Source: Escherichia phage FL20 | DNA: 64,000 nucleotides | Direction: 5' to 3' (one strand) | Sequence record: PP400781 | Shown here: piece by piece, positions 41,263-59,675 of the stretch | Layout of the letters: each line of letters starts with the position of its first letter | Numbering within the stretch: position 1 is the stretch's first letter | Made by a program: the position numbers and the translations under genes | Notes under the pieces: model-generated | Databases searched by the model: none | What the model saw: only the letters and a program-made list of their open reading frames with translations | Told to the model about the DNA's origin: nothing

Positions 41263-41881
41263 TTATTTATATTTCGCGACCTTTGGATTTCGCCGCAGAC
41301 CGGAATGTATTTGCGCTATACAACAATAAGAAACATTAAACATATCAGCTATAATTTGCTTCTTAACTTTTCCTTTAAGCCGCATTATTTCTTCGACTTG
41401 CGCATTTGTCAGTTTTGCCCGTGAGTGGTTTTCACCGACATTGTTATTGAGTCCAGTTATAAATGAATGTCTCATATTTTCTAGTAAGGTTACTATTTCT
41501 AGATTCCACACAAAATTGCAGGTTTTTACACCATTGATGTGATTAACCTCAAGTCCGGTAAACGTCTCCTAGAAATGCATTTGCTACAAGTCGATGTATC
41601 TTTTCGGCTTTAACTGAGATTTTACCATTGTCTTTTTGTTTTGACAATGTTGAATAATAATATCCATATCGGTCTAAAATTGGTTTTATTATTTTACCAG
41701 CACGTTTTTGTTGTACGAGCTTAATATTACCGGGAGAAACTTCTCTATAAAATTCGATACTTCGGTCAATAGATCTCAATCTACCATAATTAGAGATTTC
41801 ATACCACGGATAACCTACAGCTTGTCTCCATTCTTCCGGCGCTGGTAATATGATATTATCATCTTTTGTTTCCATTGTCAA
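41263..41881 (-). pseudogene. HNH homing endonuclease (NUMOD4 + HNH_3 type) disrupted by a frameshift
   Basis: N-terminal ORF 41549-41881 carries the NUMOD4-like motif WRQAVGYPWYEISNYGRLRSI and ends ...HRLVANAFLGDVYRT*; the HNH motif LEVNHINGVKT...NLEIVT...ENMRH continues in another frame (track ORF 41263-41511 begins with an alternative start). Confidence 0.65.
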
Positions 41882-42204
41882 CTGCCACCGTACATTTCGA
41901 CGATCTGCGCTGGAGTCAGCCCGTCTACATTAATCAGACTATCAAGCCCAAAACTACGAAAACCTTCAACTGCAATTTCATATACTGGCAAAGATGTTTC
42001 TGATTCTTTACGCGGTTTTTCAACATTCGGAACTAACCACTTTTCGTATGTTTCGAAAGGCATCAGTGCCGGATCTCTCGTGGCGATCATCTCGCGGACA
42101 GTACCATCTTTCTTAGTAAACTGCAAAGAGTGAGTACCGACCGAAAACATTTTCTTTAGTGCTTCACGAAGTGCGATATTATCAATTTGTTCAGTCATTA
42201 TCAA
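41878..42204 (-). CDS. hypothetical protein (108 aa)
   Basis: ORF coupled to neighbours. Confidence 0.5.
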   Translation of the reverse strand: MIMTEQIDNIALREALKKMFSVGTHSLQFTKKDGTVREMIATRDPALMPFETYEKWLVPNVEKPRKESETSLPVYEIAVEGFRSFGLDSLINVDGLTPAQIVEMYGGS

Positions 42205-42697
42205 TACCCTTCAAATCAGTCAATAATGCTTTTGGAATACGCGTGATCGTAATATCTGCATTATTCAGAATATCAGCCCAATCACGCCCACCATTTCGAT
42301 CATATGTGTCGCAATAGTATAGATGTTTAATTCCACTGTTTGCAATTGCTTTAGCGCAATCTGGACATGGTGAAGCAGTACACCACATACTAGCCCCTTC
42401 AATCGATACACCGCTACGGGCAGCAAACAAAATAGCATTTAATTCAGCGTGGATCTCGTTTTTCTGTGACCATGCACTATGTTCTGGTCGTTTTTCTGGG
42501 ATCATTTTGCCGTCATCATCCAGCCAGCCGTTTTTATGTGCATGACAGCTACAATTTACTTGCCCTGCTGGAGTTCCGTTAAATCCAGTAGAAATGATTC
42601 GCCCGTCTTTTTCGATCAGTGCGCCTACCTTCCACGAAACACATTTAGAGTTCTTTGCGATCAGATAGGCGATCTGCATGTAAGTTTGTGACAACAT
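42191..42697 (-). CDS. cd: dCMP deaminase
   Basis: 168 aa; zinc-binding deaminase signature HAELNAI and PCPDC; synteny. Confidence 0.9.
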   Translation of the reverse strand: MLSQTYMQIAYLIAKNSKCVSWKVGALIEKDGRIISTGFNGTPAGQVNCSCHAHKNGWLDDDGKMIPEKRPEHSAWSQKNEIHAELNAILFAARSGVSIEGASMWCTASPCPDCAKAIANSGIKHLYYCDTYDRNGGRDWADILNNADITITRIPKALLTDLKGIDND

Positions 42698-42718
42698 AAT
42701 ATAATCCTCACATATTAA

Positions 42719-42922
42719 TTAACCGTATACGCGAAAGTATTCTACTGATCCGTCGCTATACTGTTTTACATTGAATGTATTCACACCACGGTCATTGCTC
42801 ATAATGACATACACACTTCGACGCTCGTCCACAAACGGGTTAACTGGTGCTGGTTCAATCTCAACATTAAAACCACGTTTAGCAAGTGCTTCGCCTAATT
42901 GCTTGAGTTTATCGGTAAACAT
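42719..42922 (-). CDS. hypothetical protein (67 aa)
   Basis: ORF between pseT and cd. Confidence 0.5.
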   Translation of the reverse strand: MFTDKLKQLGEALAKRGFNVEIEPAPVNPFVDERRSVYVIMSNDRGVNTFNVKQYSDGSVEYFRVYG

Positions 42923-43821
42923 TAAAAGTCTCCGTAGTTAACCTGAAAACATTCTACGCCAATTGAGCGGTACATGTCAACCACTTGATCACGGTCATCT
43001 ACCGCCAAAACAACATGATAACGTGGTGCAATTTCAGAGAAGAAAATCTCTTTCTTTACTTCATGGTCTGGACGTCGATCATTAGTTTCACGCTGGAAGT
43101 GATCGCTAGGTTCAATACCATGTTCACGCAGCCATTGCAGAGTATCTTCTTCGCAAACATCCTCACGCCCTGAGCATGTAATGATACGATAACCATTATC
43201 ACGATACAGTTTAAGCATTTCGATCACTTGCGGACGCGGTTTATCTTCTTTGACCTTTGTCCAGTCAAACGGATGACGACCGCCCTTATCCGCTAATGTC
43301 CCATCAATATCAAAGATCACTGCCTTTGGCAGCATGGTATTCGGTTTGTATACTTCTTGACCCATATATTCCTGCATCAGATAAAATTGGTTACGCAAAT
43401 GAGAAAGTGGAATTGCTTTCTCGCCTCGATAGAAATTACGTTTCTTTAGTGTCTCAAATGATTCATTGAACACTTGTTCAGTATACACCGCGTTAAATTC
43501 TTTTGCAAGTTCTTTGTAGAATACACGATGTTTTTCTTTCAGGTTAGTATCAGAGATAATGATACTCAATCCGCGTGATAGAGTCTCACGAGCAATCATT
43601 CTCTGAATAGACTCTACCAGCTTTTCTTTTTCCTTAGTATACTTGTATTTCAAATGTGAGTCAACACCAAACAACATAAGACGAAGATCATCGCGATTCA
43701 CATTACGATAATTACTAAACCGTTTACATGTTTCCATAGCCCATGTAGTTTTACCGGACCCAGAACAACCAACGGTTAAAATCACTTCACATTTCGGCAT
43801 TATTTCTCCTTCGGTTTGCAC
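42922..43821 (-). CDS. pseT: polynucleotide kinase / 3'-phosphatase
   Basis: 299 aa; P-loop VGCSGSGKTT, NRDD, HAD motif VIFDIDGTLA and C-terminal VDDR; colinear with T4 Pnk. Confidence 0.93.
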   Translation of the reverse strand: MQTEGEIMPKCEVILTVGCSGSGKTTWAMETCKRFSNYRNVNRDDLRLMLFGVDSHLKYKYTKEKEKLVESIQRMIARETLSRGLSIIISDTNLKEKHRVFYKELAKEFNAVYTEQVFNESFETLKKRNFYRGEKAIPLSHLRNQFYLMQEYMGQEVYKPNTMLPKAVIFDIDGTLADKGGRHPFDWTKVKEDKPRPQVIEMLKLYRDNGYRIITCSGREDVCEEDTLQWLREHGIEPSDHFQRETNDRRPDHEVKKEIFFSEIAPRYHVVLAVDDRDQVVDMYRSIGVECFQVNYGDF

Positions 43822-44252
43822 CGTTCCTCATTAAGTTCTTTTCGATAATAACACATGATCAACTTACTTTCAAGTGTATATCTCTTAATATCCGCAAGCC
43901 AGACTCTGAATTTTTGGGAGTCCTCCCACGACATAGAAACTCTAGGTTTACCGTCTATTGTATCCACTTTCAGGTCAATGTCAACTTTTTCTATTGGTGC
44001 TGGTAGTGGAGGATGTAATTTCGGTTCCTGTGAATAATGGTCCATTGTACACGAAGAAAGAGCAAATACAATAGGCACAGCGAAGACATGGATTATGGCG
44101 GTCTGAAAATTCTTATGTGCTTCCTTAAACAACCAGTGTATCACGAAAATTGAAAACACCATCAGGATAATAATGCTTGCACCTATCCCCAGATAATCAA
44201 CCAGATTAAAATTGCTTATCTGCTCTTGCGTAGGCAATATTTCTATGCTCAT
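43800..44252 (-). CDS. membrane/lipoprotein, candidate o-spanin (start uncertain)
   Basis: Hydrophobic segment then lipobox-like ALSSC and a Pro-rich linker; position matches T4 pseT.2. Confidence 0.35.
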   Translation of the reverse strand: MSIEILPTQEQISNFNLVDYLGIGASIIILMVFSIFVIHWLFKEAHKNFQTAIIHVFAVPIVFALSSCTMDHYSQEPKLHPPLPAPIEKVDIDLKVDTIDGKPRVSMSWEDSQKFRVWLADIKRYTLESKLIMCYYRKELNEERCKPKEK

Positions 44253-44572
44253 TTAGTAGCCTCCTTTAATTCTTCGGTAAACTCCTTAAATGAATCATTA
44301 AGCTGTTTCTCTACCAACTTGGGTTTTTGTGCTACTACATAGCCTCGTGTAGCGTCTTTCATTGCTTTGTTTTGTTCTTCTGCAAACTTAGTTCTTATTC
44401 CGTACATCTCCTTTTGTAGTGAGTCTACGACCTTCATCTTTTCATCTGTCTTTTTCTTATACTCTGTAAATTCCTGATTTAATCGGTCCACCTCCTTTTT
44501 ATTTTCCCACCACATATTGCCACCTACCCCCAGCAACACAGATATGATAACAATGTATATCAGCTTTGACAT
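44249..44572 (-). CDS. candidate i-spanin (N-terminal TM plus coiled-coil)
   Basis: Track ORF 44249-44623; from Met18 (MSKLIYIVIISVLLGVGG...) 107 aa; position matches T4 pseT.3. Confidence 0.45.
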   Translation of the reverse strand: MSKLIYIVIISVLLGVGGNMWWENKKEVDRLNQEFTEYKKKTDEKMKVVDSLQKEMYGIRTKFAEEQNKAMKDATRGYVVAQKPKLVEKQLNDSFKEFTEELKEATK

Positions 44573-44587
44573 ATTACCCCCAACGAC

Positions 44588-44612
44588 AAAAGGCGGGGAA
44601 CTAGCCCCGCTT
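44588..44612 (-). terminator. rho-independent terminator after rnlA (approximate)
   Basis: Stem gcggggctag/ccccgcc-like hairpin followed by T-tract on minus strand. Confidence 0.55.
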
Positions 44613-44616
44613 ATTA

Positions 44617-45786
44617 TTACCAATCAATCTTATCAGCCGGAATCAGTTTCTTATAATTCCGTAGATAGTAAGTTTTCATTGAAGCCAGAATACGGTCATA
44701 ATCAAGACCATCAAATGCAATCATCAGACACATGAAAATATATGATTGTGCATCACCATGTTTACGTGATTCGATAGTCGCATTGGATGCATATGTCTTT
44801 CTGTCTTCTCCCGCGTGTGCGTTATAAAATTCTGTTGCTGTCGTAAAGGCATTGCGAAGAATGGACCTGAATGCTTCCTCGAATAGCTCAATTCGTTCCA
44901 GTGCTTCCGGTTCTCCTTCATATGCAGCACGCAAATCATCGGTTTCGCTTTCTACGACATAGTAGATCAGGTTATTAGGAAACATAGATGTGTTTTTAAT
45001 GTTATGCACACCAATATACCATTCACTCTTCACCTTGAACATTTGACCGTCTTTAGTGCGTGCAACAATTCCTTCGATACCTTCTGCGGTCCGAACTTCA
45101 TCAAGAATATTGCTAAAACGCGCTGAATCAACCTGTAACGCATTTACCAGATGAGGACGTAGGATTGCGTCAGCAAATAGCATTTGATGCGGTACGTACT
45201 CTCCTGTGACGTTATGGCGTACATTCAGAAGTGTTAGCGACGGTTCAGAATATTCTACAACAATTCGGTTGCTGGGTGCTGTATATTCAAAGTTGAAAGT
45301 ATAATCAGACCCAATATCAGCAATCTTAGCGCGTAGATCCGCATACTTCTCTGAATACAGAAGACCGTTTGCTCTCTCTGCCTGGCTTGAGTACAAGGCC
45401 GCTTTAGACTTCAACTGAACATAGCCGTTATCAATGTAGGTGCTTACTAGACTACCGTCCATTTTGTCCATGACCATTTCCACATCTTCCGACTTAAAGC
45501 GAGCGCGATCATTCTCGCCTAAATTAAAAAACTTCTCCATAGGACGAGATGCAATGCGGACCGGACGACCTTTATCGTCAATTTCAAACATGATCCCGCG
45601 ACACTCTAACGCATCTGGTTTATTCCACATTTCCGGTTTGCTCAAGTACAGATAACTAAAAATGCGCATACGGGTTTGCATCGCCGTAATTTCATCTTTG
45701 TAATAGAACGTATCAGATCCGTCACATAGTGCCATCAGATTTTTGAACAATGCTAAAACTTTTTTGTTGTTTTCTTTTGTTGACAT
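44617..45786 (-). CDS. rnlA: RNA ligase 1
   Basis: 389 aa; blocks ALECRGIMFE, RIASRPMEKFFNL, KMDGSLVS (nucleotidyl-lysine motif), GKDRKTYA match T4 Rnl1. Confidence 0.93.
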   Translation of the reverse strand: MSTKENNKKVLALFKNLMALCDGSDTFYYKDEITAMQTRMRIFSYLYLSKPEMWNKPDALECRGIMFEIDDKGRPVRIASRPMEKFFNLGENDRARFKSEDVEMVMDKMDGSLVSTYIDNGYVQLKSKAALYSSQAERANGLLYSEKYADLRAKIADIGSDYTFNFEYTAPSNRIVVEYSEPSLTLLNVRHNVTGEYVPHQMLFADAILRPHLVNALQVDSARFSNILDEVRTAEGIEGIVARTKDGQMFKVKSEWYIGVHNIKNTSMFPNNLIYYVVESETDDLRAAYEGEPEALERIELFEEAFRSILRNAFTTATEFYNAHAGEDRKTYASNATIESRKHGDAQSYIFMCLMIAFDGLDYDRILASMKTYYLRNYKKLIPADKIDW

Positions 45787-46183
45787 AATTTGTGTTCCAT
45801 TCTGGTTTAAATTTGGTGATCAAAACAGGTTCTTCGATATCGGCAGTGCTTATAATATCCTTACCCGTTGGATTCTCGATGTACAACTCAAAGCACTGTC
45901 GGTAATAGAATGTTACTGTCTTACCTTCCTCTAGCGCCTTATGAATATTCTTACTCTTGCGAGTATCCGCTGTTGGTGTTTGTCTGTTAATGCTAGTCCG
46001 GTAATAATTGATCCGCTTTCTGAGATTGACAGTCTGACCAATGTATACCAGTTCATCATCAACAACAATAGCGTAAAGAACATTTAAACGGTTCTTCTGA
46101 GGCGGCAGAATCACATCACCATCTTTACACTCTAAACATGAATATTTAACGAATCCATAGTTTTCTATTAGCTCATTAATCAT
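45722..46183 (-). CDS. denA: endonuclease II (GIY-YIG family)
   Basis: 153 aa; NVLYAIVVDDELVYIGQTVNLRKRINYYRT aligns with T4 DenA; 3' end overlaps rnlA start by about 65 nt. Confidence 0.88.
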   Translation of the reverse strand: MINELIENYGFVKYSCLECKDGDVILPPQKNRLNVLYAIVVDDELVYIGQTVNLRKRINYYRTSINRQTPTADTRKSKNIHKALEEGKTVTFYYRQCFELYIENPTGKDIISTADIEEPVLITKFKPEWNTNYVNKRKQQKSFSIVQKSDGTM

Positions 46184-46233
46184 TATCCTTTCCTCACGTC
46201 ACAACAAAGGCGGGATTTCTCCCGCCCACCTTA

Positions 46234-46632
46234 TTAACTTTCCAGAATATCGCGAGCTTCGTTACGCTCCTTGATGATTTTCAGGACAAATTCCAGTTTT
46301 TCTTTGTTCAGTGTTCCGTTTTCCATTGCTTCTTTGACGGTAAACACTCCGCCACCTTGCCCGTATACAGTGACAGTGATTTCACCTAACATCGTGGTAT
46401 GAAAACCGCCAATTTTCGGTGATTCGAAAGAAACAATTACCTCGCGAACAGTATTACCGTCGTTGATTTCTGAGAGGGTAATGTCGTTTTTGTAGGCGGT
46501 TGCTTTAACCATACGGATCAGCATAGTCTGATCTGGGGAGATGGTCATTTTGTCCATTGCATGTTGCAATGCAGCGTAACCGAAAACTTTAACGAAGTCC
46601 AGAACATCTTTGCGAGTTTGAAATTTAATCAT
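46234..46632 (-). CDS. hypothetical protein (132 aa), PeSL-driven
   Basis: ORF directly after PeSL copy 11. Confidence 0.55.
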   Translation of the reverse strand: MIKFQTRKDVLDFVKVFGYAALQHAMDKMTISPDQTMLIRMVKATAYKNDITLSEINDGNTVREVIVSFESPKIGGFHTTMLGEITVTVYGQGGGVFTVKEAMENGTLNKEKLEFVLKIIKERNEARDILES

Positions 46633-46702
46633 CTTGGTACTCCTTAGTTGTTTTGGTGTGGGAGTATCTTACTACTCCCGTGATATGCTGTCAACTGCTT
46701 TT
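46633..46702 (-). promoter_or_regulatory. PeSL cassette copy 11
   Basis: Conserved layout; palindrome gggagta...tactccc. Confidence 0.7.
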
Positions 46703-46852
46703 TTATGCAACCGCAAACATCAACATTTGAACATTCTTGGCTGTCTGGCTTTCAAAGTTCTGACATTCTTTGATAATGTCCTCTACTTTCTCGCCGGAGA
46801 TCTCCGCGTAAGTTTCGATTGCCATTTTCAGTACCGAGTCAAAGTTGTTCAT
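46703..46852 (-). CDS. small hypothetical protein (49 aa), PeSL-driven
   Basis: Ends placed via the plus-strand track ORF 46634-46897 frame; RBS GGAGAA; N-terminus MNNFDSVLKM. Confidence 0.45.
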   Translation of the reverse strand: MNNFDSVLKMAIETYAEISGEKVEDIIKECQNFESQTAKNVQMLMFAVA

Positions 46853-46919
46853 TTGATTCTCCTTAAAGTTTATTTCGTTTCGATGGGGGTATATTAATAC
46901 CCCCGTTATTCAGTGTCAA
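46853..46919 (-). promoter_or_regulatory. PeSL cassette copy 12 (palindrome gggggtatat-taataccccc)
   Basis: Conserved layout. Confidence 0.7.
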
Positions 46920-47138
46920 CTACTTTTTAATGACAATTTCGAATTTTGCTACCTTGCGTCCTCGTTTATTGAAAGCAACCCACGGACGGTTTTCAATATA
47001 GAACAATTCTTCGCCAATAATGAATACTGGCTGATTGTAAAGGCGACCCATCAGGTCACGCTGGCGAATGGTAGTAGATTCGTATACTTCGCCTACTACA
47101 AAGTGTTTGCTGATAGAGTCGGTGCAAGTAAATTTCAT
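46920..47138 (-). CDS. hypothetical protein (72 aa), PeSL-driven
   Basis: ORF directly after PeSL copy 13. Confidence 0.55.
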   Translation of the reverse strand: MKFTCTDSISKHFVVGEVYESTTIRQRDLMGRLYNQPVFIIGEELFYIENRPWVAFNKRGRKVAKFEIVIKK

Positions 47139-47207
47139 TTTGATTCTCCTTTGTTTCGTTTCGATGGGAGTATCTTACTACCCCCGTTATTCAGTGTCAA
47201 CTACTTT
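47139..47207 (-). promoter_or_regulatory. PeSL cassette copy 13
   Basis: Conserved layout. Confidence 0.7.
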
Positions 47208-47426
47208 TTACTTGTTGTATTCATTCCACCATTTGGTGAGCTTATCAATTATTTTTGTGTTTCTATCCAACTTCTCCCACCGTTTTCTAGGGTTTATCAA
47301 CCGGAATAGGTAAGGTGTACTTGTTAAGTGAACTCGGTCAATGTAGTGATTGATGTACTGTTTTTCGATTCTAAGTTTCATCTTTTTACGATGAAAATAT
47401 GCAATGACTTGTTCTTCTGTTTCCAT
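47208..47426 (-). CDS. hypothetical protein (72 aa from Met19), PeSL-driven
   Basis: Track ORF 47208-47480; upstream codons are PeSL sequence; RBS GGAGGAACAT before the ATG. Confidence 0.5.
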   Translation of the reverse strand: METEEQVIAYFHRKKMKLRIEKQYINHYIDRVHLTSTPYLFRLINPRKRWEKLDRNTKIIDKLTKWWNEYNK

Positions 47427-47490
47427 ATGTTCCTCCGTTTCGATGTGTATTATGCTATGGCAAGATCCTATTGTCAACACCCAATAACAA
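47427..47490 (-). promoter_or_regulatory. PeSL cassette copy 14
   Basis: Conserved layout. Confidence 0.65.
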
Positions 47491-47513
47491 AAAAGTCGCC
47501 ACTATGGGCGACT
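47488..47513 (-). terminator. rho-independent terminator after the HAD phosphatase gene (approximate)
   Basis: Stem agtcgcc/ggcgact with T-tract on minus strand. Confidence 0.6.
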
Positions 47514-47524
47514 TTGAACAAACA

Positions 47525-48001
47525 TTAATCATGACCGTGATTTGCAATATCCGCTCGCGTCTTATCTTTGTGATTTCCTACGTCAAAGACACGATAACCA
47601 TTTTCACGCAAAACTTTAATCACTTCTGGGTTATCCTCAAAGACTCCGACAACTTCATCTTTATCAAAGGATTTAATTACCTCTAATTTGATGTGATAGT
47701 CTTTACGGGAATCGGTACGGCCTCTCATAAAGATTTTATCAAAACACACCCCGTTAGAAATTAACCAATCAATTGTTTCCATGTAAGCATGTGAACTTCG
47801 TCCGGTGAGGATGTAAATCAAATGCCCGTTGTCGGAAAGAGCATTAATAACACGAATTACATCGTAAATGGGGGAATCTCCCCCACATGCCTTGTTATAT
47901 TCGATCCATGACTCGACTTTATCAAGATTTTCGGTTGGCATCTTTGCTAGTCGATGTGTTGGATCTGTGATCGTAAAATCTAAATCGACAAAATATATCA
48001 T
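47525..48001 (-). CDS. HAD-superfamily phosphatase (related to the Pnk 3'-phosphatase domain)
   Basis: 158 aa; HAD motif I FVDLDFTIT, LTGR, C-terminal acidic motif; coupled to nrdB. Confidence 0.6.
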   Translation of the reverse strand: MIYFVDLDFTITDPTHRLAKMPTENLDKVESWIEYNKACGGDSPIYDVIRVINALSDNGHLIYILTGRSSHAYMETIDWLISNGVCFDKIFMRGRTDSRKDYHIKLEVIKSFDKDEVVGVFEDNPEVIKVLRENGYRVFDVGNHKDKTRADIANHGHD

Positions 48002-49158
48002 AGATATTTCCCGAATCGGTTGTAGTCATCGTCTGTTAAATCGGTATTAACCTGAGATACCAGATACATAATCTCTACTTCCTGCGCTGCATTCTGTACT
48101 TCGTCAGAGTTCAACCATTTACGCATCCACGGTAACGGATGACGACGAACACTAAACGGGCTTTTCAGTCCGGCAGCACGCATACGGGAATCTGCCAGGT
48201 ATTCTACATAGGTTTTCAGAATTTCCGGTGACAGGTTAGGAATTGCCCCCATTGCGAATAGGTGGTCTACCCATTCTTTTTCTTGCTCGACAACATCCAG
48301 AAAGATTTTCGTTGCTTCGCCTTCAAGTTCTTCCGCAATCTGTTTCCACTCATCACCATCAACCCCCGTTTGCCATTGACGAATAATGTATTGTGTGCCT
48401 TTTAAGTGAAGTTGTTCATCACGCGCAATAAATTTCATGATCTTCGCGTTACCTTCCAGTAAACCACGTTCGGCAAAGCTGAAAGTACATGCAAAGGACA
48501 CATAAAAACGAATTGCTTCCAGTGCATTGACGCAGTGTGCACACAGATAAATCGAAGCCATCAGATCTCGTTTTGTATCTTCAAAAAATCTTCTTGCATC
48601 ATCTAATGCTGTCTGGTCGTCTCGTTCTTCCCAATAGCGGAGATCTTCTTTTGCATTCTCATACTTACGAATCCAATAAAGAACATCATCATAATATTTC
48701 CCGATAGATTCCGCTCGCTTCATGATAGCAGGGTTATCGATGATCTGGTCGAACTCACTAGCCGGATCAATGAAACAGTTACGCATAATGTGTGTATAGC
48801 TTCGGCTATGAATCGTTTCGCTGAATGTCCATGTTTGCAACCATGTATCGAGAGTTGGATCAGATACAATTGGACCAAATGCTGCGGACGGTGCGCGACC
48901 TTGAATAGAATCAAGTAATGTCTGATACTTCAAGTTTTCAGTAAAGAAACGTTTTTCAACATCGCCCATATTCAGATACTGAATGCGGTCGGTTGCAAGT
49001 GAAATTTCTTCGGGGCGCCAAAAAAATGACAATTGCTTTTCGATCAGTTCTTCAAATACTTGATGACGCTGAATATCATAGCGAGCGATACCCAACCCAC
49101 TACCCAGAAACATTGGTTCGTTCATAATATCAACATGTTCGCGGTTAAATACGCTCAT
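47998..49158 (-). CDS. nrdB: ribonucleotide reductase small (beta) subunit
   Basis: 386 aa; class I R2 size and iron-binding ExxH context; synteny with nrdA. Confidence 0.9.
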   Translation of the reverse strand: MSVFNREHVDIMNEPMFLGSGLGIARYDIQRHQVFEELIEKQLSFFWRPEEISLATDRIQYLNMGDVEKRFFTENLKYQTLLDSIQGRAPSAAFGPIVSDPTLDTWLQTWTFSETIHSRSYTHIMRNCFIDPASEFDQIIDNPAIMKRAESIGKYYDDVLYWIRKYENAKEDLRYWEERDDQTALDDARRFFEDTKRDLMASIYLCAHCVNALEAIRFYVSFACTFSFAERGLLEGNAKIMKFIARDEQLHLKGTQYIIRQWQTGVDGDEWKQIAEELEGEATKIFLDVVEQEKEWVDHLFAMGAIPNLSPEILKTYVEYLADSRMRAAGLKSPFSVRRHPLPWMRKWLNSDEVQNAAQEVEIMYLVSQVNTDLTDDDYNRFGKYL

Positions 49159-49173
49159 TAATTCACCTCACTA

Positions 49174-51818: not shown

Positions 51819-51886
51819 ATTACCTCACTTCATATTTTAGCAGGAACAAGTTTATCCTCCATATTGGGGGCTTTCGCCCCCTTTGT

Positions 51887-53119
51887 TTATACTGCCATTT
51901 GAGCGGTGATTGCTGGATGGCTTTGATAGTTGTGAATTTTAAAGTCTTTCGGAGTCTTTGTCAATACCTCATCTAAAGATTTAAATTCCGGCAACTCAAT
52001 CGTTGGTTTATCAAACGGAACACGGCTTAACTGTTCCATAACTTGATCAAAATGGTTTTTGTAAATGTGAGTATCTCCACCAGAGAAAATCAGTTCTCCT
52101 ACCTCAAGATCACACATTTTCGCTATGATGTGAGTTAACAGCGCATAGCTGGCGACGTTAAAGGGCAAGCCTAAAAAGCTGTCTACGCTTCTCTGAAACC
52201 ACATACAAGACAGTTTACCTTCATTGACGTAGAATTGCACGAAAGGATGACATACACCCAATACAGCATTATGTGTTCCTTGTACGTTCCATGAGTCAAT
52301 AATGATCCGGCGATCCGTTGGATTGTTTTTAATTTGTTCAATCACGTTTTGTAACTGGTCTTCCCAAATCTTCTGGCGATAGACATATTCTTCATCGTCT
52401 TTAGTGCTCGATGTGTCTACGTCCATACTAGCAAAGATCGTGGTATCTGGTGCTAAAATATCCCCACCCAGATAATCACTATCAAGCAGATAACCGAAAT
52501 AACCATCATCTACCCATTCCTGGAATCCCCACAAGCAATATGCATCATTAACAAAATTAGATTGAGTCTTCCAGTGGTCTGCTACTAAGAATAGATTATA
52601 CTCAGAATCAAACTCTTCATAACGCATACCACGCCAGATAGCACATAAACGGTCTTCTGTTTCATTGGTTGGCGTAAAGTCTTCTACCCACGGGTGCTTA
52701 AATGTATGTGCATATTTGCTCTTAACGCGCTTAATTTTGATTTCACCGTGTGGATGAATCGGTTTGCGTCGCCATGCCATACCATACATATTGCCGACAT
52801 TATAACCATTGAATCGCAAAGGATTCTTTTCTTTCATATCAAGACAGTTGCCGCGCCAAATGTCGAAGGCTTCTTCGTCAAACTTACCGCGTGTAATTTC
52901 CTGTAAGCGACGGCGGTCAAGTGATCCCTCCATAAACCATAGCAATTCACCAATTACAGAGGCTGTAGCCATCTTTTTAGTGGTCAGTAAGGGGAAACCC
53001 TTGCTTAAGTCAATTCGCATTTCTGCACCGAATTTAGAGAGCGTACCTATCCCCGTTCGGTCTTCACGAGGCCAGCCATTATCAAGAACATCACGCAACA
53101 GTTTCAAATATTCTTTCAT
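51887..53119 (-). CDS. td: thymidylate synthase with a ~135-aa in-frame insertion
   Basis: 410 aa; ThyA blocks DRTGIGT, RRIIIDSWNV, CHPFVQFYV, LGLPFNVASYALLTHI, C-terminus HNYQSHPAITAQMAV; extra segment between residues about 119 and 253. Confidence 0.9.
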   Translation of the reverse strand: MKEYLKLLRDVLDNGWPREDRTGIGTLSKFGAEMRIDLSKGFPLLTTKKMATASVIGELLWFMEGSLDRRRLQEITRGKFDEEAFDIWRGNCLDMKEKNPLRFNGYNVGNMYGMAWRRKPIHPHGEIKIKRVKSKYAHTFKHPWVEDFTPTNETEDRLCAIWRGMRYEEFDSEYNLFLVADHWKTQSNFVNDAYCLWGFQEWVDDGYFGYLLDSDYLGGDILAPDTTIFASMDVDTSSTKDDEEYVYRQKIWEDQLQNVIEQIKNNPTDRRIIIDSWNVQGTHNAVLGVCHPFVQFYVNEGKLSCMWFQRSVDSFLGLPFNVASYALLTHIIAKMCDLEVGELIFSGGDTHIYKNHFDQVMEQLSRVPFDKPTIELPEFKSLDEVLTKTPKDFKIHNYQSHPAITAQMAV

Positions 53120-53387
53120 CCCACATCACCTTTTTCTTATTGATTGCTTTCTTACGCAGTTTTGCTACTGTCTCGTCAATATCGATAAAGACAACGCCAC
53201 GGTCGAATACAGTAGCAGGTCTTGAGATATCGCTATTTTCTTGCACAGGAAGCCATGATGCGCTCGCTTCATCATAGAGATATTGTAAACCGTAATAATC
53301 TACGGCTACTGCGTAGTTTTCACTGGTAGCCGTCCATAATTGAATAATACCGACTTTCATTATTGTTCCCGTCCGCAATGTAAGCAC
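53091..53387 (-). CDS. hypothetical protein (98 aa or shorter)
   Basis: ORF between frd and td; start uncertain. Confidence 0.45.
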   Translation of the reverse strand: MLTLRTGTIMKVGIIQLWTATSENYAVAVDYYGLQYLYDEASASWLPVQENSDISRPATVFDRGVVFIDIDETVAKLRKKAINKKKVMWDERIFETVA

Positions 53388-53453
53388 CGACTACCAGCAA
53401 ACATTAAAGATTCACCACAATGTTTGCACTCATAATCTGTCAGAATTTTCATG

Positions 53454-54035
53454 TTACGCCTTCTTACGTTCTAAAATTTGTTCGCTGATCAGGTAATTAT
53501 CAAGGAAGTAATTATGTTCTTCTTTGGTTACAAAGTCAAAATACAATTCCTGAATCATTTCCTTAGATATACCAACATCATATTCAAATGGATCGTTGAT
53601 CCCTGAACGTTGAACATACGTTAACACAATACGGTCCGCAAAGTCAACTGCTTTTTCAATCAGGGAAGGTCCACCAATAACGCTTACCAAACCTTGCAAT
53701 TTCTCTATGACTTCTAATAATTCCTTCAATCCACCATCATTAGTAATCGCGGTATACACATCAGGTTGTTCGCCGTTTTTTGCTGTCGGTGCTGGCTTAC
53801 TGGTATCGGTACTAACAACCACATTCACACGACCTTCCAGTGCTTTAGGAAGACTTTCAAAGGTATTGCGTCCCATTACAACCGCCGCAAGATCAACATC
53901 TCCCATAGTGCGCATTTTAAAGTTTTCCATGTCCTTTTTGATTGGACGACCCCACGGTAAACCGCCTTTAAAACCAAAAGACCAATTTTCATCCGACATT
54001 TTAGTGTCACCAATCGCAAATACACATTGAATCAT
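53454..54035 (-). CDS. frd: dihydrofolate reductase
   Basis: 193 aa; DHFR signature GGLPW and NAD(P)H-binding context; synteny with td. Confidence 0.88.
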   Translation of the reverse strand: MIQCVFAIGDTKMSDENWSFGFKGGLPWGRPIKKDMENFKMRTMGDVDLAAVVMGRNTFESLPKALEGRVNVVVSTDTSKPAPTAKNGEQPDVYTAITNDGGLKELLEVIEKLQGLVSVIGGPSLIEKAVDFADRIVLTYVQRSGINDPFEYDVGISKEMIQELYFDFVTKEEHNYFLDNYLISEQILERKKA

Positions 54036-54050
54036 AATATAAATCTCCTA

Positions 54051-54380
54051 TCAAACCAGCTTGAGATAGTTTTCGTTAACGTTTTCTTCTGTGATCTCGG
54101 TTTTAAACTCATTACCAACATCAGGAGAAACATAATAGCGTTCGGAATAATCACGCCACATTTTCAGTAGGCTGACACCAACATTAACACCATTTTCCCA
54201 GAAACGGAAGATAATTTTATTTGCGGTGTAGCGGTAATCGCTTTGAATCAAGCTGCCATCACCGCGACGTGATTCATAAACCGTAATACATTCACGGTTA
54301 GCGGCTTTAAGACATTCTTCAATAGTGCCGCATGAGATAATTTCGGTTGAGTCGTTTACGATTTGTTCTACAGTCCACAT
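54051..54380 (-). CDS. hypothetical protein (109 aa), PeSL-driven
   Basis: ORF directly after PeSL copy 16. Confidence 0.55.
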   Translation of the reverse strand: MWTVEQIVNDSTEIISCGTIEECLKAANRECITVYESRRGDGSLIQSDYRYTANKIIFRFWENGVNVGVSLLKMWRDYSERYYVSPDVGNEFKTEITEENVNENYLKLV

Positions 54381-54450
54381 AATATAATCCTCTCTTTGTT
54401 TCGATGTGTGTATTATACATTACCACATCAGCATGTCAACACCTTTTTCA
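54381..54450 (-). promoter_or_regulatory. PeSL cassette copy 16
   Basis: Conserved layout. Confidence 0.65.
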
Positions 54451-54465
54451 TAAAATTTTAGTCAA

Positions 54466-54491
54466 TAAAAAAGCCTCCCCGAAGGAAGGCT
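54466..54491 (-). terminator. rho-independent terminator after gene 32 (approximate)
   Basis: Hairpin agccttcc-TTCG-gggaggct plus T6 on minus strand; third member of the same terminator family. Confidence 0.7.
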
Positions 54492-54501
54492 TTAAAATTC
54501 A

Positions 54502-55503
54502 TTACATCCCTAACAGAGCGTCAAGATCATCCAGATCAGAAGCGGAGGAAGTACCGCCACCCAGATCCAGCGATGCCATCAGGTCATCAGCGGAAGAATC
54601 TAACGCCGTGCTAGCTGCGTTAATACCAACTACAGTGCTAGCTGCGTTAATACCAACTACAGTGCTAGCTGCGTTAATACCAGAATCGAATGCATTCATC
54701 TGTGCGTCAAAATCGTCAAGCTGGCTGTTAATCGCTGCCGCAGCACTGGAAGCCGCAGCACCAGCTACCATAGAAACGCCCATAGTTTTCTTAAATTTTG
54801 TTTCCAGTTCATCGAACGGTTTAAACTGGCTAGGCGCTACAATCTCACTCAGATCAACCATGTTTTCCATCAGATATTTCTGATATGCTTCGTCTTCAAT
54901 TTTCGGAAGCTGTGATTGCTGCATGAAACGAGAATCATCATAGTTCTGGTGTTTATCAACCTTCTTAGCTTTCAGGAGGAAGTTAGCACCAGAGAACACA
55001 CAAGTTACATCGACCGGAACTTCGCCCATATCGGTATTCACGTTCACCATTGCAACGATCTTATCATAAATTTTCTGACCGAAGCGGAATTTGAATACCT
55101 TACCTTCATTTTCTGGTGCTTGAGGATCTTTCAGTACCAGAATATTTGCGTAGTAAGACGCTTTACGCTTAATCAGTTGCCATTCGGTTTTATCGGTATT
55201 GTACAGGTCTTTTTCGTTAATATATTTGCACACAGGGCAAGAATCAAAATCACCGTGGGTGCTGGAGCAGTTTTCCCAATACCATTTGCCATTAACTTTG
55301 AAGGAATGGTTTACCAGTTTCACAATCGGCAGACCGTCTTCTGTCTTAGACGGCAGGAAGCGAATCAGGGCTTCACCGTTACCTGCTGCATCAGTCTTAA
55401 TCTTCCACTCTTTTGGATCTTCTTTGGAGAAACCGTTGCCACCTTTCAGTGCGGCCAGTTGAGCTTGCAGTTTGGAGCTATCTTGACGACGAAACATGTT
55501 CAT
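54502..55503 (-). CDS. 32: single-stranded DNA-binding protein gp32
   Basis: 333 aa; blocks [20 protein letters not shown] (zinc site), [31 protein letters not shown] match T4 gp32. Confidence 0.95.
54601..54681. repeat. in-frame tandem 27-bp repeat (3 copies) inside gene 32 encoding GINAASTVV x3
   Basis: Three consecutive 9-residue units at residues 275-301 of gp32; nucleotide units near-identical. Confidence 0.8.
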
Positions 55504-55563
55504 AATTATACCTCTTTATACATTAACTATTGATTAATTTACGTTTTATACTATATCAGATAC

Positions 55564-56160
55564 TTAATTGCTTGTCAATACTTTATCAATTATATCTAAC
55601 AGTTTTGGCTTTCTATTTTCAAATTCTAACATCTCTTCGGGAGAAATGTCAACTACTTCTGTTTTGTTGAAAAAGTTTGGGTCTATAGCATCAGCAACAA
55701 AGTTTCTCGCAAGTGCTGCCGCTTTCTCATGAACATATATTCCCAAATATATCAACTTCTTTCTTTCGACCTGAATATTGGCAACATATTTACCATCTCG
55801 TTTATAAAGACTAACACCGATATATTCAGACGATCGACCTTTCTGTTTACCCATATTTCTTGAGTTTTGTTGCTCGTTCGCATCTCTCAAGTTTTCAATC
55901 CGATTATCTGTTATAATTCGGTTAACATGGTCAACGTATTTTGGCATGTATCCATGATGCATAAAGAAAATTATTCTATGCTCTTTATGATGTTTACCAT
56001 CGATACACACCAATCTGTATCCATGACTAGGATTAACTCCACCCGCTCTAGATCCGACTTTATGCTTTCTGTTTGTCGATATCTTGCGAATCAGCTTACC
56101 GTTATCATATTTAAAGAGTTCATGACAACGAGCATACAATTCAGGATCATATGTTTTCAC
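55564..56160 (-). CDS. HNH-AP2 homing endonuclease
   Basis: 198 aa; HNH_3-type motif HRIIFFMHHG...VDHVNRIITDNRIENLRDANEQQNS followed by AP2 domain YIGVSLYKRDGKYVANIQVERKKLIYLGIY; occupies the segG locus of T4. Confidence 0.7.
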   Translation of the reverse strand: MKTYDPELYARCHELFKYDNGKLIRKISTNRKHKVGSRAGGVNPSHGYRLVCIDGKHHKEHRIIFFMHHGYMPKYVDHVNRIITDNRIENLRDANEQQNSRNMGKQKGRSSEYIGVSLYKRDGKYVANIQVERKKLIYLGIYVHEKAAALARNFVADAIDPNFFNKTEVVDISPEEMLEFENRKPKLLDIIDKVLTSN

Positions 56161-56824
56161 CTTTTAACCTCGATATTTCTTTACACTCTTTAACTACTTT
56201 AACAAATAATGCTCTTGCTTTTGCGGCGTCAATAACAAGTAGTTTCTTGTACGCCTTCATTTTAACACTATAAGTTTGCCAAATCAAGTCTTTGGCTACC
56301 TTGTCGTGTTCGTCGATTATATTTAGAAAGCTATCTAACAACATAAACGACTCAAACGATATAATCCGATTTTGCAGTAGTTTAAAGATACCGCTAGTTT
56401 CGGTTGCGGGATTATATGTAATTAGCTCTTTAAGAGTAACCCCGCGTTTCTCTGAGAAGTATACAAGACTTTTAATGTCATCGTCAAATCTTGTTGCTGC
56501 ATCTGTTATCTTTCCTATGTATTCCATATAAAAGCCGTATGCGTCAACATCAGTGATTTCACCTACCCATGCATCGGTATTAGCTACCAGATTGCTTAGG
56601 AATAGGAAGTATAATTCTCTTAGATTGTACTTTTCCGCTAATTTTGCGAAATAATACTTATCTCTGCGTTTATTGAATGCGGCATCAGATAACCGCATCC
56701 TCCAATTATATTTTACGCAATCATAACGCCCGTTCATATGAGCTTTCATCATGCAATATAACATATACACAGATTTAGCATTAATTCGCATATCTGGATC
56801 TGGAGGAAGACGGTTTCTGATCAT
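56147..56824 (-). CDS. 59: helicase loader gp59
   Basis: 225 aa; blocks GKSVY.LY.M..HMNG.YD..KYNW.MR.SDAA..KRRDKY.F.KL.EKY.L.EL, NLVAN.DAW.G, FKLLQ..IISFE.F.LLDSFLNIID.HD match T4 gp59. Confidence 0.93.
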   Translation of the reverse strand: MIRNRLPPDPDMRINAKSVYMLYCMMKAHMNGRYDCVKYNWRMRLSDAAFNKRRDKYYFAKLAEKYNLRELYFLFLSNLVANTDAWVGEITDVDAYGFYMEYIGKITDAATRFDDDIKSLVYFSEKRGVTLKELITYNPATETSGIFKLLQNRIISFESFMLLDSFLNIIDEHDKVAKDLIWQTYSVKMKAYKKLLVIDAAKARALFVKVVKECKEISRLKGENI

Positions 56825-56833
56825 ACATACCCC

Positions 56834-57103
56834 TTAAATATCGAGAGTGTTGGTCGGTTCGTCGATCACTCCCTTCCTGAGCGTTCTATTTACTATACAT
56901 TCTTGTGTGATCTTGTCAATAATGGACACCGGAATATATTTCTGATAGTGACCATATTCTATAGAGTTTTCCTCTACAAACTGAGTTGTCGCTTCAAGAT
57001 AAGTCAATCCCTCTTCAACAACCAGTTTTTCGATTGCAAGACCGTTTGCTGTTTTATTCGCGGCTTTTACCGCATGTTCATTAAGCATTGAACACCCGAT
57101 CAT
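56834..57103 (-). CDS. 33: late promoter transcription accessory protein gp33
   Basis: 89 aa; block YLEATT.F.EENSI matches T4 gp33; synteny. Confidence 0.8.
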   Translation of the reverse strand: MIGCSMLNEHAVKAANKTANGLAIEKLVVEEGLTYLEATTQFVEENSIEYGHYQKYIPVSIIDKITQECIVNRTLRKGVIDEPTNTLDI

Positions 57104-57356
57104 AGAGTTCTACTGCTTCATCGCGTTCTGCTTCGAAGGTTTCGCGCTGTTGCTGGTGATACAGTTTAAACAGAATGCCCCACATTTTACCATCTACGCC
57201 TAATTCTTCTTTAGCACGCTGTTTGATCTCTTTGATCTTATCGCCATATGCTTCTTGAATGGTTTTCTGATCACTGGCTTCTTTAATCAGTTGTGCCAGG
57301 GTATTTCCGTGCACTGCTTCGTCAAATACTACTTTTTCTTTTTTCTGTTCAGTCAT
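57081..57356 (-). CDS. dsbA: DsbA-like double-stranded DNA-binding protein
   Basis: 91 aa; synteny between 33 and rnh. Confidence 0.65.
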   Translation of the reverse strand: MTEQKKEKVVFDEAVHGNTLAQLIKEASDQKTIQEAYGDKIKEIKQRAKEELGVDGKMWGILFKLYHQQQRETFEAERDEAVELYDRVFNA

Positions 57357-57360
57357 AATA

Positions 57361-57957
57361 TTAACCCTCTTTCGTCATTAATTGAAAACCACGTTCAGCT
57401 TTTGAAATTTCGCTAGGACTTAAATCGTCACCAACATATTCTAGCATCATTTCTCGGATAATGTCAAGTGCTTTTTCATCACCTGATTTTAACTCGAACT
57501 CAAGTTCATAGTGAGCATCTCCCATGACTTCGCCGACTTTGCAATAATAGAAAGTGTCTTTGCACATTTCCACTATAGCACCCTCAAGGTCAAGTGTCAA
57601 TGACTTGAGGTATGTCATTACTTGCAACAAAGGAACTATAAGGTCGGAGTTTACGCCTAGACTATCAACATAGTGATAGAAATCATCCATTGTTGAAAAA
57701 GTAATTTCTTCTCGGTTGAATAGTCCAGATTCACCATCACCTATTTTGATCATGATCAATGATCTATTAACGTCAAGTCGAGCATAAATTCCTTTTCGAC
57801 GCAGTGCATGATCTTCGGTATCATAATAAAATTCGTGTTTTAGAGTGTTAGCATGATCTACGATATTGTACCCGTCATACATTGCCGCCCACAAATCACA
57901 GATGGTTTCGACGCCAATTTGTGAGTGTACATAGTATTTTAATTCAAGTTCTTTCAT
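57361..57957 (-). CDS. CYTH-domain (triphosphate tunnel metalloenzyme) protein
   Basis: 198 aa; N-terminal ExExK (MKELELKYYV), YYDTEDHALRRKG...AR (YFDTPD...LR.R-type block), C-terminal ExExE (YELEFEL). Confidence 0.7.
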   Translation of the reverse strand: MKELELKYYVHSQIGVETICDLWAAMYDGYNIVDHANTLKHEFYYDTEDHALRRKGIYARLDVNRSLIMIKIGDGESGLFNREEITFSTMDDFYHYVDSLGVNSDLIVPLLQVMTYLKSLTLDLEGAIVEMCKDTFYYCKVGEVMGDAHYELEFELKSGDEKALDIIREMMLEYVGDDLSPSEISKAERGFQLMTKEG

Positions 57958-57967
57958 GTGTCAACCC

Positions 57968-58915
57968 TTAGAACTCACCAATTTTCTGTAACATTTTAAC
58001 TAACGCATTTGTTACAAAATAGTTATAAATTTTACCGCGTGGTGCTGGTTTAGATTTTTCCCATGCTAACAAAATTTCATATTCGATGTTATCGGGAATA
58101 AATTCAAAATCAATAAGTTCGCGGTTTTCGTCAAAGCGTCGTGCTTCTTCCTCTGTCATCAAAGACTTTGGATCTTCGGCATCGAAAATTTGCTCTAACC
58201 ATTTGGTTGCAATTGGTTTAGCTCGTTCTCCTTCCAGTCGTGAGATAATGAAATCACTACGGCACTTGATCGAAGCTACACCGTCTTTTGCGTCACCCTT
58301 AACACATTTTACCATAAGGTCTTTGTAAGGGCTACCATATTTGCATTTCTTCCATGCTTTCTGTACTGGCGCCCACTGTTTCACATTTTTGTATTTGTGC
58401 AACTGTGTGTAGTCACCATCGCCGGAGTTGATTAGCACCTGGCGACCTTCTACAGAAAACTTTTTAGTTAATACAGCGATTATGTCATCTGCTTCAACTT
58501 TGTCAACCTTAATAACGTGATAAGGCATGTTCTCTTTAAACTCTTCGGTGATCTTATTGATCGCAGCAAAGATCATCTCCCAATCACGCGGATCTGCGTC
58601 TCGTTTTTCCTTACGGTTGCGTTTATAGTAAGGGGCGATATCACGTCGCCAGTAACCTTTGCTTGAATCAAAAGCAAGTACCGTAATAGGGTATTGCTCT
58701 TTGAATTTTGTCATATTATAACGCATGGTGTCAAGAATAAGATGACGGATCATGCCTTCATTAATAGGATCTTCCGGTTTAAAGGTATGCGAGATAGTGG
58801 CAATCATAAGCTGCGACATATCAATCAAATGCACACCTTCCGGTAGTTTATCTTCTGGATCATCGAAGAAATCATTAAGTGTAGCGGTCGTTTTTGTAAA
58901 CGGGTTATACGTCAT
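57968..58915 (-). CDS. rnh: RNase H (FEN-family 5'-3' exonuclease)
   Basis: 315 aa; blocks MIRHLIL, GYWRRD, YHVIKVDKVEADDIIAVL, SGDGDYTQLHKY.NVKQW.P, PRGKIY.YFV match T4 RNase H. Confidence 0.93.
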   Translation of the reverse strand: MTYNPFTKTTATLNDFFDDPEDKLPEGVHLIDMSQLMIATISHTFKPEDPINEGMIRHLILDTMRYNMTKFKEQYPITVLAFDSSKGYWRRDIAPYYKRNRKEKRDADPRDWEMIFAAINKITEEFKENMPYHVIKVDKVEADDIIAVLTKKFSVEGRQVLINSGDGDYTQLHKYKNVKQWAPVQKAWKKCKYGSPYKDLMVKCVKGDAKDGVASIKCRSDFIISRLEGERAKPIATKWLEQIFDAEDPKSLMTEEEARRFDENRELIDFEFIPDNIEYEILLAWEKSKPAPRGKIYNYFVTNALVKMLQKIGEF

Positions 58916-58917
58916 AA

Positions 58918-59103
58918 TTAAGTTCTCTCCACTCTCACAACAACATATTCTTCAAACGAGTTAGATACTTCACGGTCATACCCGTATTTCTCCATAACTC
59001 GCAGAATTGCATTGTTTAATTCGGCACGGAAATAATTGTAATCCTTATCAGGGATTCTGTCAACTACCCATTTTGCACCTTCTGACAAATCAACTTTAAC
59101 CAT
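58918..59103 (-). CDS. small hypothetical protein (61 aa)
   Basis: ORF between the HNH remnant and rnh. Confidence 0.4.
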   Translation of the reverse strand: MVKVDLSEGAKWVVDRIPDKDYNYFRAELNNAILRVMEKYGYDREVSNSFEEYVVVRVERT

Positions 59104-59109
59104 AATATA

Positions 59110-59675
59110 TCATCCTCTTTTTGGAAAATTTAAATAAGCATACTCGCCAACTCTTTCATGTGCTGCACGGTCATAAGCCTTAGCCGCCTCAACTTCTGTC
59201 TCAAAGTATCCTAGATGTATATTCTTTCGATTGATAACAATATACGCCTTCCACGGCTTTTTCTTGCTTGTTGATAATGATACACCTTTATATTTGCTAT
59301 GACAAGCCTTTTTCTTTGAGACGTTAAACTGATTTTGCTGTTCTGTTGCTTCTCTCATGTTTGACGGTCTATTGTTAGTTTTGTCTTGGTCTATGTGATC
59401 TATTAGTTCAACCTGAGTACCATACTCTAAAAACCAGACAACTCTATGTACAAATAGATTAAGTTTATGACCATTGTTATAAAATGTAAAGTATAAATAT
59501 CCTTCTTTATGGAGACGTTACCCTTACCACATCACCTTTTTTGTATCTGGACCCTTCTTTTCGGAATCCAGCAGCTACAGAATCCTTTAAATGGTATAAT
59601 ATTCCATCAACATGATAAAATCTACCTTTTATCGCTTTCTGTGTCTCGATATCCCAAAATTTTGTTTTTGCCACA
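59110..59675 (-). pseudogene. decayed HNH-AP2 homing endonuclease (approximate upstream limit)
   Basis: Track ORF 59110-59358 is an AP2 domain (YKGVS...KPWKAYI...GYFETEVEAAKAYDRAA); the same frame upstream, with no start codon, reads HRVVWFLEYGTQVELIDHIDQDKTNNRPSN (HNH_3 motif) and is closed by stop codons; an N-terminal fragment lies in another frame. Confidence 0.6.

Follow-up and report, generated by a model that had tools for sequence, protein, structure and literature searches.

The 64,000-nucleotide (nt) stretch of Escherichia phage FL20 analysed here (sequence record PP400781), referred to as the window throughout, very probably holds four free-standing homing endonuclease cassettes, of which two carry intact-looking genes and two are young pseudogenes with one extra base each. 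The genes are situated between inh and uvsW (inh/uvsW), between genes 31.1 and 31 (31.1/31), between genes 59 and 32 (59/32) and on the side of gene 34 (ORF247/34), and their coordinates are collected in Table 1. In all four, a GIY-YIG or HNH nuclease domain is joined to a DNA-binding module, as found by Pfam and PHROG searches in which intact orthologues were used for the two broken genes. The reading frame is intact at 16650-17381 and 55564-56160, and is interrupted by a 1-nt insertion in each of the genes at 41263-41875 and 59110-59674. An earlier reading of the sequence alone had proposed several homing endonuclease genes in this DNA, two of them inactivated, a proposal that is backed by clean insertions relative to related phages and by intact orthologues of 97-99% identity.

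Endonuclease genes between conserved genes

FL20 originates from pig faeces and was sequenced by Illumina MiSeq (2x250) with CLC de novo assembly (PMC12032242). Genes in the window follow the order inh, uvsW, baseplate genes, ligase, 31, cd, pseT, nrd, td, frd, 32, 59, 33, dsbA, rnh and 34, and the DNA is 95-97% identical to RB49-like coliphages, with pEJ01 and ELT4 as the top matches at 97%. Because of this gene order and degree of identity, the window is assigned to Krischvirus (RB49-like). Alignment by BLAST to the syntenic 69 kb of phage Phi1, in which insertions above 250 bp were listed, revealed five insertions, at 16632-17385, 41277-41890, 55503-56154, 59121-59690 and 37692-37956. Four of these five consist of exactly one endonuclease gene each, placed between conserved genes; the comparison of insertion sites with related phages lacking the genes, which the sequence-only reading had put forward as a check, thus returned four precise endonuclease-sized insertions. 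Junctions were set by BLAST boundaries combined with manual reading, while a global MAFFT alignment of the junctions was misleading and not used.

Compared with Phi1, JSE and the majority of the remaining Krischvirus genomes, the four cassettes are clean insertions, and each of them is subject to presence/absence polymorphism at a precise intergenic site. Across the approximately 58 Krischvirus records from which all such counts are taken, the SegE-like cassette is present in three, the 31.1/31 gene in 11, the 59/32 cassette likewise in 11 (nine at 98% identity or above and two at 89.6%) and the gene-34-side gene in eight. The combinations are mosaic among Krischvirus, and no listed record carries all four. 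No Rfam family, group I introns included, reached threshold anywhere in the window and all cassettes are intergenic; an intron-encoded status of the endonucleases is rejected. Moreover, a phmmer search with six endonuclease proteins against all six-frame open reading frames (ORFs) retrieved no further endonuclease paralogues or fragments in the window beyond the known loci.

The gene at inh/uvsW, which had been named as a segE-like GIY-YIG enzyme, matches the Pfam families SegE_GIY-YIG (1.8e-8) and GIY-YIG (9.3e-6) and shares 38% identity with T4 SegE over the full length (E=1e-54). Judged by this full-length similarity together with its position, it is a SegE orthologue. Like T4 SegE, it occupies the inh/uvsW slot 3' of a late promoter and is linked to a diverged uvsW allele; unlike T4 SegE, which comprises 205 amino acids (aa), the protein has 243 aa and features an internal insertion of about 40 aa in its C-terminal, DNA-binding half. 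No contig other than that of FL20 contains this exact protein.

At 59/32, a gene of a different family is found. Its product matches HNH_3 (2.2e-11) and phrog_99 (1.5e-50), while the AP2 match (7.4e-5, 23.4 bits) stays below the Pfam cut-off of 33.3. The prediction of an HNH-AP2 endonuclease at the segG position is borne out in that the T4 record places segG between genes 59 and 32, with the proviso that the AP2 domain is below the cut-off by Pfam. The gene resembles T4 segG in its slot and its orientation and in being a cassette without promoter that overlaps the end of gene 59. In contrast to SegG, a GIY-YIG enzyme that targets gene 32, it encodes an HNH_3-AP2 protein without sequence similarity to SegG, and no diverged gene 32 tract lies alongside it. 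Different endonuclease families at one and the same intergenic site have previously been reported in T-even phages, and the unrelated HNH gene in the segG slot is a further case. Two phages, E26 (MN655998.1, 141307-142591) and 011D4 (MT478991.1, 92438-93719), carry a diverged allele, 89.6% identical over the stretch corresponding to 55200-56500 of the window, and annotate the gene as 'Fis family transcriptional regulator' rather than as an endonuclease.

The gene-34-side gene is of the same HNH_3-AP2 type and shares 39% identity with the 59/32 gene across HNH and AP2. Its AP2 domain scores 34.1 bits in an intact orthologue (cut-off 33.3) and 30.5-32.0 bits in the window copy. For the AP2 part, PDB hits to plant ERF/AP2 structures were obtained (7wq5, 3.9e-8; 1gcc, 2e-5). 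Hence, the assignment of both genes to the AP2-HNH class is supported by HNH_3 scores well above the cut-off, and by the structure matches and the 39% identity with respect to AP2. Members of this family are present in 1981 phage records. The class was initially noted in RB49 (ORF040) and RB43 (ORF027; Magnani et al. 2004, cited in Nolan et al. 2006). Like these, the two FL20 genes encode HNH_3 followed by an AP2-type DNA-binding domain. They differ from ORF040 in their genome positions, going by ORF numbering (the syntenic ORFs of Phi1 are 148 to 250), and from the ORF040/ORF027 class in that one is frameshifted and the other has an AP2 domain below the Pfam cut-off. Taken by their sequences, the SegE orthologue and the HNH_3-AP2 gene at 59/32 look functional.

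A further HNH gene overlaps with its start the end of the DNA ligase gene. It had been listed among the homing endonucleases, and the HNH part of this claim holds (Pfam 5e-6), whereas the homing part is not supported: the gene is found at 95% identity or above, and always beside ligase, in 58 of 58 Krischvirus records, so that it displays no presence/absence polymorphism. Therefore its mobility is not demonstrated and it is treated as a fixed gene of the genus, which should carry no homing endonuclease label without evidence. It corresponds to Phi1 ORF212 and to RB49 ORF212c, which was flagged by Nolan et al. 2006, and its distant relatives comprise HNH genes of siphoviruses such as HK225. Before the ligase gene, the fifth insertion relative to Phi1 (37692-37956) represents a swap of small ORFs: the window has an 88-aa ORF (37693-37959, minus strand) that is not in Phi1, which instead has about 280 bp (ORF210) missing from the window.

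The load of such genes had been described as heavy. With four to five genes in 64 kb it is close to the density of T4, which carries 15 homing endonuclease genes in 169 kb (Edgell et al. 2010), so the term is relative; the load does exceed the two putative mobile ORFs flagged in each of RB49 and Phi1. The four cassettes are of known kinds and ordinary for T4-type phages, and relatives already annotate the genes as HNH or homing endonucleases.

Table 1. Features of the FL20 window discussed in the text (ORF, open reading frame; aa, amino acids)
Feature	Position	Strand	Remarks
TATAAATA late-promoter motif	16604-16611	+	Flank 97-100% identical to Phi1; common to phages without the insertion
SegE-type GIY-YIG gene, intact, 243 aa	16650-17381	+	Pfam, T4 SegE match; alternative TTG start at 16629
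uvsW allele linked to the SegE-like gene	17386-18888	+	Strongly diverged from the allele of endonuclease-free phages
HNH-family gene beside ligase	38235-38711	-	Pfam HNH 5e-6; phrog_2118; overlaps 3' end of DNA ligase gene
Gene 31 allele linked to the endonuclease gene	40903-41226	-	Mostly synonymous divergence tract adjoining the insertion
NUMOD4-HNH_3 gene, split by 1-nt insertion	41263-41875	-	Slot 31.1/31; cassette 41277-41890 missing from Phi1
C-terminal frame with HNH motif and C-terminal region	41263-41547	-	Begins VNHINGVKTCN
TATAAATA late-promoter motif for gene 31	41264-41271	-	Overlaps endonuclease stop; shared flank at insertion junction
N-terminal ORF, 108 aa, NUMOD4	41549-41875	-	Pfam NUMOD4 2e-12 (ORF 41549-41881 searched)
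Frameshift site 1, TT to TTT	41560-41562	-	One extra T, GACGTTACC to GACGTTTACC; alignment with orthologues
HNH_3-AP2 gene, intact, 198 aa	55564-56160	-	Slot 59/32; start overlaps gene 59 end by 14 nt
Second HNH_3-AP2 gene, split by 1-nt insertion	59110-59674	-	Slot ORF247/34; cassette 59121-59690 missing from Phi1 and JSE
AP2-only ORF, 82 aa	59110-59358	-	AP2 1.5e-7, 32.0 bits; only ORF there with a start codon (Met 59358)
Open frame with HNH_3 and AP2	59113-59517	-	HNH_3 1.9e-12
Internal TATAAATA	59492-59499	+	Antisense to endonuclease gene, towards gene 34; 227 nt before ATG at 59726
N-terminal ORF, 55 aa	59507-59674	-	Stop 59507-59509
Frameshift site 2, GTATG to GTAACG	59518/59519	-	One extra A, GGGTATGTC to GGGTAACGTC; alignment with orthologues
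AATAAATA, likely working late promoter of gene 34	59690-59697	+	At right insertion junction, 29 nt upstream of ATG

Elsewhere in the window, the 1383-nt gene ORF240 of Phi1 (L015:7408-8790), which lies there between the frd-side ORF239 and gene 32, is missing (54387-54460). The C-terminal region of gene 32 contains a perfect 27-nt tandem repeat (54608-54682, 2.8 copies) encoding GINAASTVV repeats, and gp32 has 333 aa in the window versus 322 aa in Phi1.

Frameshifts in two of the genes

Both broken genes differ by a single inserted base from intact orthologues at 97-99% identity. The 31.1/31 gene occurs in ten other Krischvirus phages, eight of which (E26, ECD7, ELT4, phiS, PHB13, KFS-EC, G2494 and pEJ01) have an intact 203-aa ORF with NUMOD4 and HNH_3; relative to these eight, the FL20 copy, correctly picked out beforehand as a frameshifted NUMOD4/HNH_3 gene at 41263-41881, has one extra T. 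The upstream frame consequently ends at TGA 41549-41551, seven codons before the catalytic His, and overlaps the downstream frame over only 17 nt (41552-41568). Since the next start of the downstream frame (GTG 41511) lies 3' of the HNH motif, this gene cannot yield a nuclease. Endonucleases of the NUMOD4-HNH_3 kind are found in more than 1100 records. In domain content the gene resembles the HNH/NUMOD endonucleases of the I-HmuI type (PDB 1u3e), with a weak and marginal similarity (E=1.5e-3), but unlike I-HmuI it is free-standing instead of intron-encoded and, in FL20, frameshifted.

For the gene-34-side gene, intact 187-aa orthologues with HNH_3 and AP2 exist in six phages, namely PTE-Eco09, ELT4, pEJ01, G37-3, FL15 and KFS-EC; in KFS-EC (MH560358.1; L009:611-1174) the intact gene is unannotated. 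The extra A of FL20 creates a TAA in the downstream frame while the upstream frame stops at 59507-59509, and the two frames overlap over only 8 nt. The first start in the open frame, Met 59358, falls 3' of the HNH motif. The sequence-only reading had described a decayed HNH-AP2 gene at about 59110-59675 whose AP2 domain survives as an 82-aa ORF. Both the frameshift and this ORF are present, but 'decayed' is overstated: because the HNH motif and AP2 share one open frame, the gene is one base away from intact and not eroded. A nonsense mutation was likewise considered, as a CGA to CTA change at codon 90 was suspected to be a stop; read in frame, it is R90L.

Both frameshifts are probably real pseudogenising mutations. 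The bases involved (TT to TTT and A to AA) are in neither case part of a long homopolymer. The FL20 copy of the 31.1/31 gene has three private substitutions, all of them non-synonymous: K55Q, Y121F (inside the HNH motif) and R139I. The intact copy of phiS, on the other hand, has 2 non-synonymous and 16 synonymous changes (Fisher p=0.0075 versus FL20), a ratio that indicates that the gene is normally under purifying selection, whereas the broken FL20 copy bears signs of relaxed constraint. FL20 and PHB13, which form one lineage of the gene-34-side gene, have 5 non-synonymous and 4 synonymous changes in common, along with a different frameshift each. These substitution patterns fit relaxed constraint on dead genes and would be hard to obtain from sequencing error.

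Breakage is also observed in other phages. In the 31.1/31 gene of G37-3, an independent one-base deletion (-1; A5 to A4) is located 35 nt further on than the FL20 site (L005:640-1300), while PHB13, the closest gene-34-side copy, has a different +1 insertion (A6 to A7) 25 nt upstream of the FL20 site (L006:591-1231). The joint chance of frameshifts at only 35 nt and 25 nt from the FL20 sites is estimated at about 1%. Both are placed in A-runs and could reflect slippage hot spots or sequencing errors.

An alternative already raised by the sequence-only reading for the 31.1/31 gene is that the frameshifts are sequencing or assembly errors, in which case the real phage would possess four active endonuclease genes. 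Consistent with this, each lesion is one inserted base, both truncated proteins occur in a single record, and most database copies are intact, in eight of ten other phages for the first gene and in six of seven for the second. Such an error is nevertheless unlikely, given the low-indel Illumina MiSeq platform with de novo assembly and the sequence contexts devoid of long homopolymers. In addition, the three non-synonymous and zero synonymous private substitutions in the first gene are a pattern not expected of error, and the independent frameshifts in G37-3 and PHB13 show that both genes break naturally. Alternatively, programmed ribosomal frameshifting or transcriptional slippage could overcome the frameshifts and allow low, regulated expression of a toxic nuclease. 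Homing endonucleases of T4 are indeed tightly down-regulated at translation (Edgell et al. 2010), and in the first gene a UGA closes the upstream frame near the shift site. A +1 shift would have to occur within overlaps of only 17 nt and 8 nt, however, in which inspection of the sequence revealed neither a slippery run nor a prfB-like CUU-UGA signal. As the orthologues, at 97-99% identity, are single-frame, the extra base is a derived mutation, and since the frameshifts of G37-3 and PHB13 are at other positions and one is of opposite sign, there is no conserved shift signal. A programmed shift, also named in the sequence-only reading, is accordingly set aside and merits virtually no credence.

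Some points weigh against four homing cassettes with two genuine pseudogenes. The truncated proteins of 108 aa and 82 aa are present in one genome record only, and the substitution counts are small. Activity and target sites of all four proteins are assigned by analogy. Furthermore, the flanks of the 59/32 and gene-34-side cassettes exhibit no extended diverged tract and few junction-proximal differences.

Flanking alleles, promoters and the gene 34 junction

The proposed mode of spread, including the cleavage-and-repair mechanism and the choice of flanking genes as targets, is adopted from the literature on T4 seg and mob genes. When related phages infect the same cell, the enzyme would cut the allele without the gene, either at the empty slot or close to it. 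The endonuclease-bearing genome would then serve as template for recombinational repair, whereby the gene together with some flanking DNA would be copied into the cut genome; copying with flanks is referred to as homing with co-conversion, alias marker exclusion. In the two broken cassettes, the single-base insertion 5' of the catalytic HNH motif would leave no nuclease to be made, and young pseudogenes of this kind would be expected for selfish genes without benefit to the phage.

Flanks of the co-conversion type are found at two of the four cassettes, the SegE-like and the 31.1/31 one. Compared with Phi1, uvsW next to the SegE-like gene exhibits about 73% nucleotide and 81% amino-acid identity, returning to 99% roughly 300 nt past the gene. 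Records without the SegE-like gene fail to align across uvsW, and the divergence is perfectly linked to the presence of the endonuclease. In T4, uvsW is the target gene of SegE (Edgell et al. 2010, Table 1). The diverged block (17386-19200) travels with the SegE-like gene, roughly 2.5 kb in all, and is bordered on both sides by DNA of 97-100% identity. Gene 31 differs from its Phi1 counterpart at 37 nucleotides and only 5 amino acids, with the differences clustered at nt 33-216, in the two-thirds nearest the cassette. Identity to Phi1 amounts to 82-85% in the 300 bp by the 31.1/31 junction and to 98-100% beyond, and the other allele of gene 31 is present in all records that lack the cassette. 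The tract has the appearance of a co-conversion tract or of a resistant target allele; in general, diverged flanks linked to the endonuclease gene are the trace expected from co-conversion, or from selection for a target allele that resists cleavage.

By their position, the SegE-like, 31.1/31 and 59/32 genes lack promoters of their own and are co-transcribed with their neighbours, an arrangement known from many seg and mob genes of T4 (Edgell et al. 2010). The SegE-like gene separates the late promoter of uvsW from the start codon of uvsW; TATAAATA at 16604-16611 would drive first the SegE-like gene and then uvsW. The 31.1/31 gene starts 2 nt after the stop codon of 31.1, and the TATAAATA motif that in FL20 overlaps the endonuclease stop overlaps the gene 31.1 stop codon in Phi1.

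The gene-34-side cassette, on the other hand, sits in a divergent region between the leftward rnh unit and the rightward gene 34, and its right junction is the first base of the gene 34 late promoter. This promoter reads TATAAATA in empty sites and AATAAATA in all cassette-bearing phages. Predicted late promoters of the RB49 type commonly have A or T at -13 (Nolan et al. 2006), so gene 34 probably keeps a working promoter with its A. A TATAAATA motif about 230 bp upstream of gene 34, inside the endonuclease gene, had been reported from the letters alone and is indeed present, 227 nt before the ATG. That this internal motif was needed to rescue gene 34 after loss of its promoter was considered and is largely rejected, as AATAAATA stays at the junction and A or T is common at -13. 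On the opposite strand, a sigma-70-like promoter (59705-59732; CTGCCA, 16 nt, TG-TATAAT) shares sequence with the start codon of gene 34 and is oriented leftward, in the direction of the endonuclease gene and the rnh unit; phages with the empty site have TATAGT there.

The motif WATAAATA is not over-represented in the window (14 found versus 12.6 expected). For a perfect TATAAATA in gene 34 orientation within the 570-bp insert, about 0.02 occurrences are expected by chance, as estimated from the shuffle mean; as evidence of a promoter, this is no more than suggestive. It is very unlikely that the cassette, whose insertion met the gene 34 late promoter at its first base and turned TATAAATA into AATAAATA, supplies in its internal antisense TATAAATA a second late promoter for the long-tail-fibre operon. 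If this were true, a late antisense RNA would cover the endonuclease gene in its 5' third, and the cassette would be anchored in the genome after the death of its nuclease, an antisense version of the promoters embedded in T4 endonuclease genes, such as those of gene 32 within segG (Edgell et al. 2010). The leftover 82-aa AP2-only ORF might then also persist as a DNA-binding protein.

In a broader form of this idea, the fragments would have been co-opted: the 82-aa AP2 ORF or the C-terminal, DNA-binding fragment of the first gene would work as a site-specific DNA-binding protein, for instance in repression or in protecting target sites, and the internal TATAAATA would serve as an extra gene 34 promoter and source of antisense RNA. 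An ORF with an ATG retains the whole AP2 domain, I-TevI doubles as a transcriptional repressor and T4 endonuclease genes embed promoters for their neighbours (Edgell et al. 2010). Moreover, the internal motif is perfect despite its low chance expectation, and its complement is invariant in eight of eight aligned copies. This invariance, however, is explained by the coding of a conserved G-Y-L-Y in copies that are already 97-99% identical, and inspection of the sequence before ATG 59358 revealed no Shine-Dalgarno element. With the truncated alleles being unique to one genome and gene 34 retaining AATAAATA 29 nt before its ATG, with an A at -13 that is common in predicted RB49-type late promoters, co-option is exceedingly improbable.

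Probable decay of the genes and meaning for Krischvirus

Taking the two broken cassettes as young pseudogenes, the findings can be compared with the endonuclease degeneration cycle of invasion, fixation, decay and loss, which was described for yeast introns and has been discussed for phages (Edgell et al. 2010). In agreement with this cycle, intact and independently frameshifted copies coexist among close Krischvirus relatives, and a broken copy bears signs of relaxed constraint. Unlike in the cycle, decay takes place here while most relatives still have empty sites, and loss of targets is therefore not an obvious cause.

The importance of these findings beyond correct annotation is small. In FL20, the two pairs of short 'hypothetical' ORFs should read frameshifted homing endonuclease pseudogenes. 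Krischvirus as a whole provides a natural data set in which four endonuclease genes have a mosaic distribution, the likely target genes are indicated by the linked, diverged flanks in gene 31 and uvsW, and three independent frameshift events are found in other phages or lineages. This data set may be of use in studying the spread and decay of selfish genes, as well as in choosing markers when therapeutic RB49-like phages are recombined or engineered.

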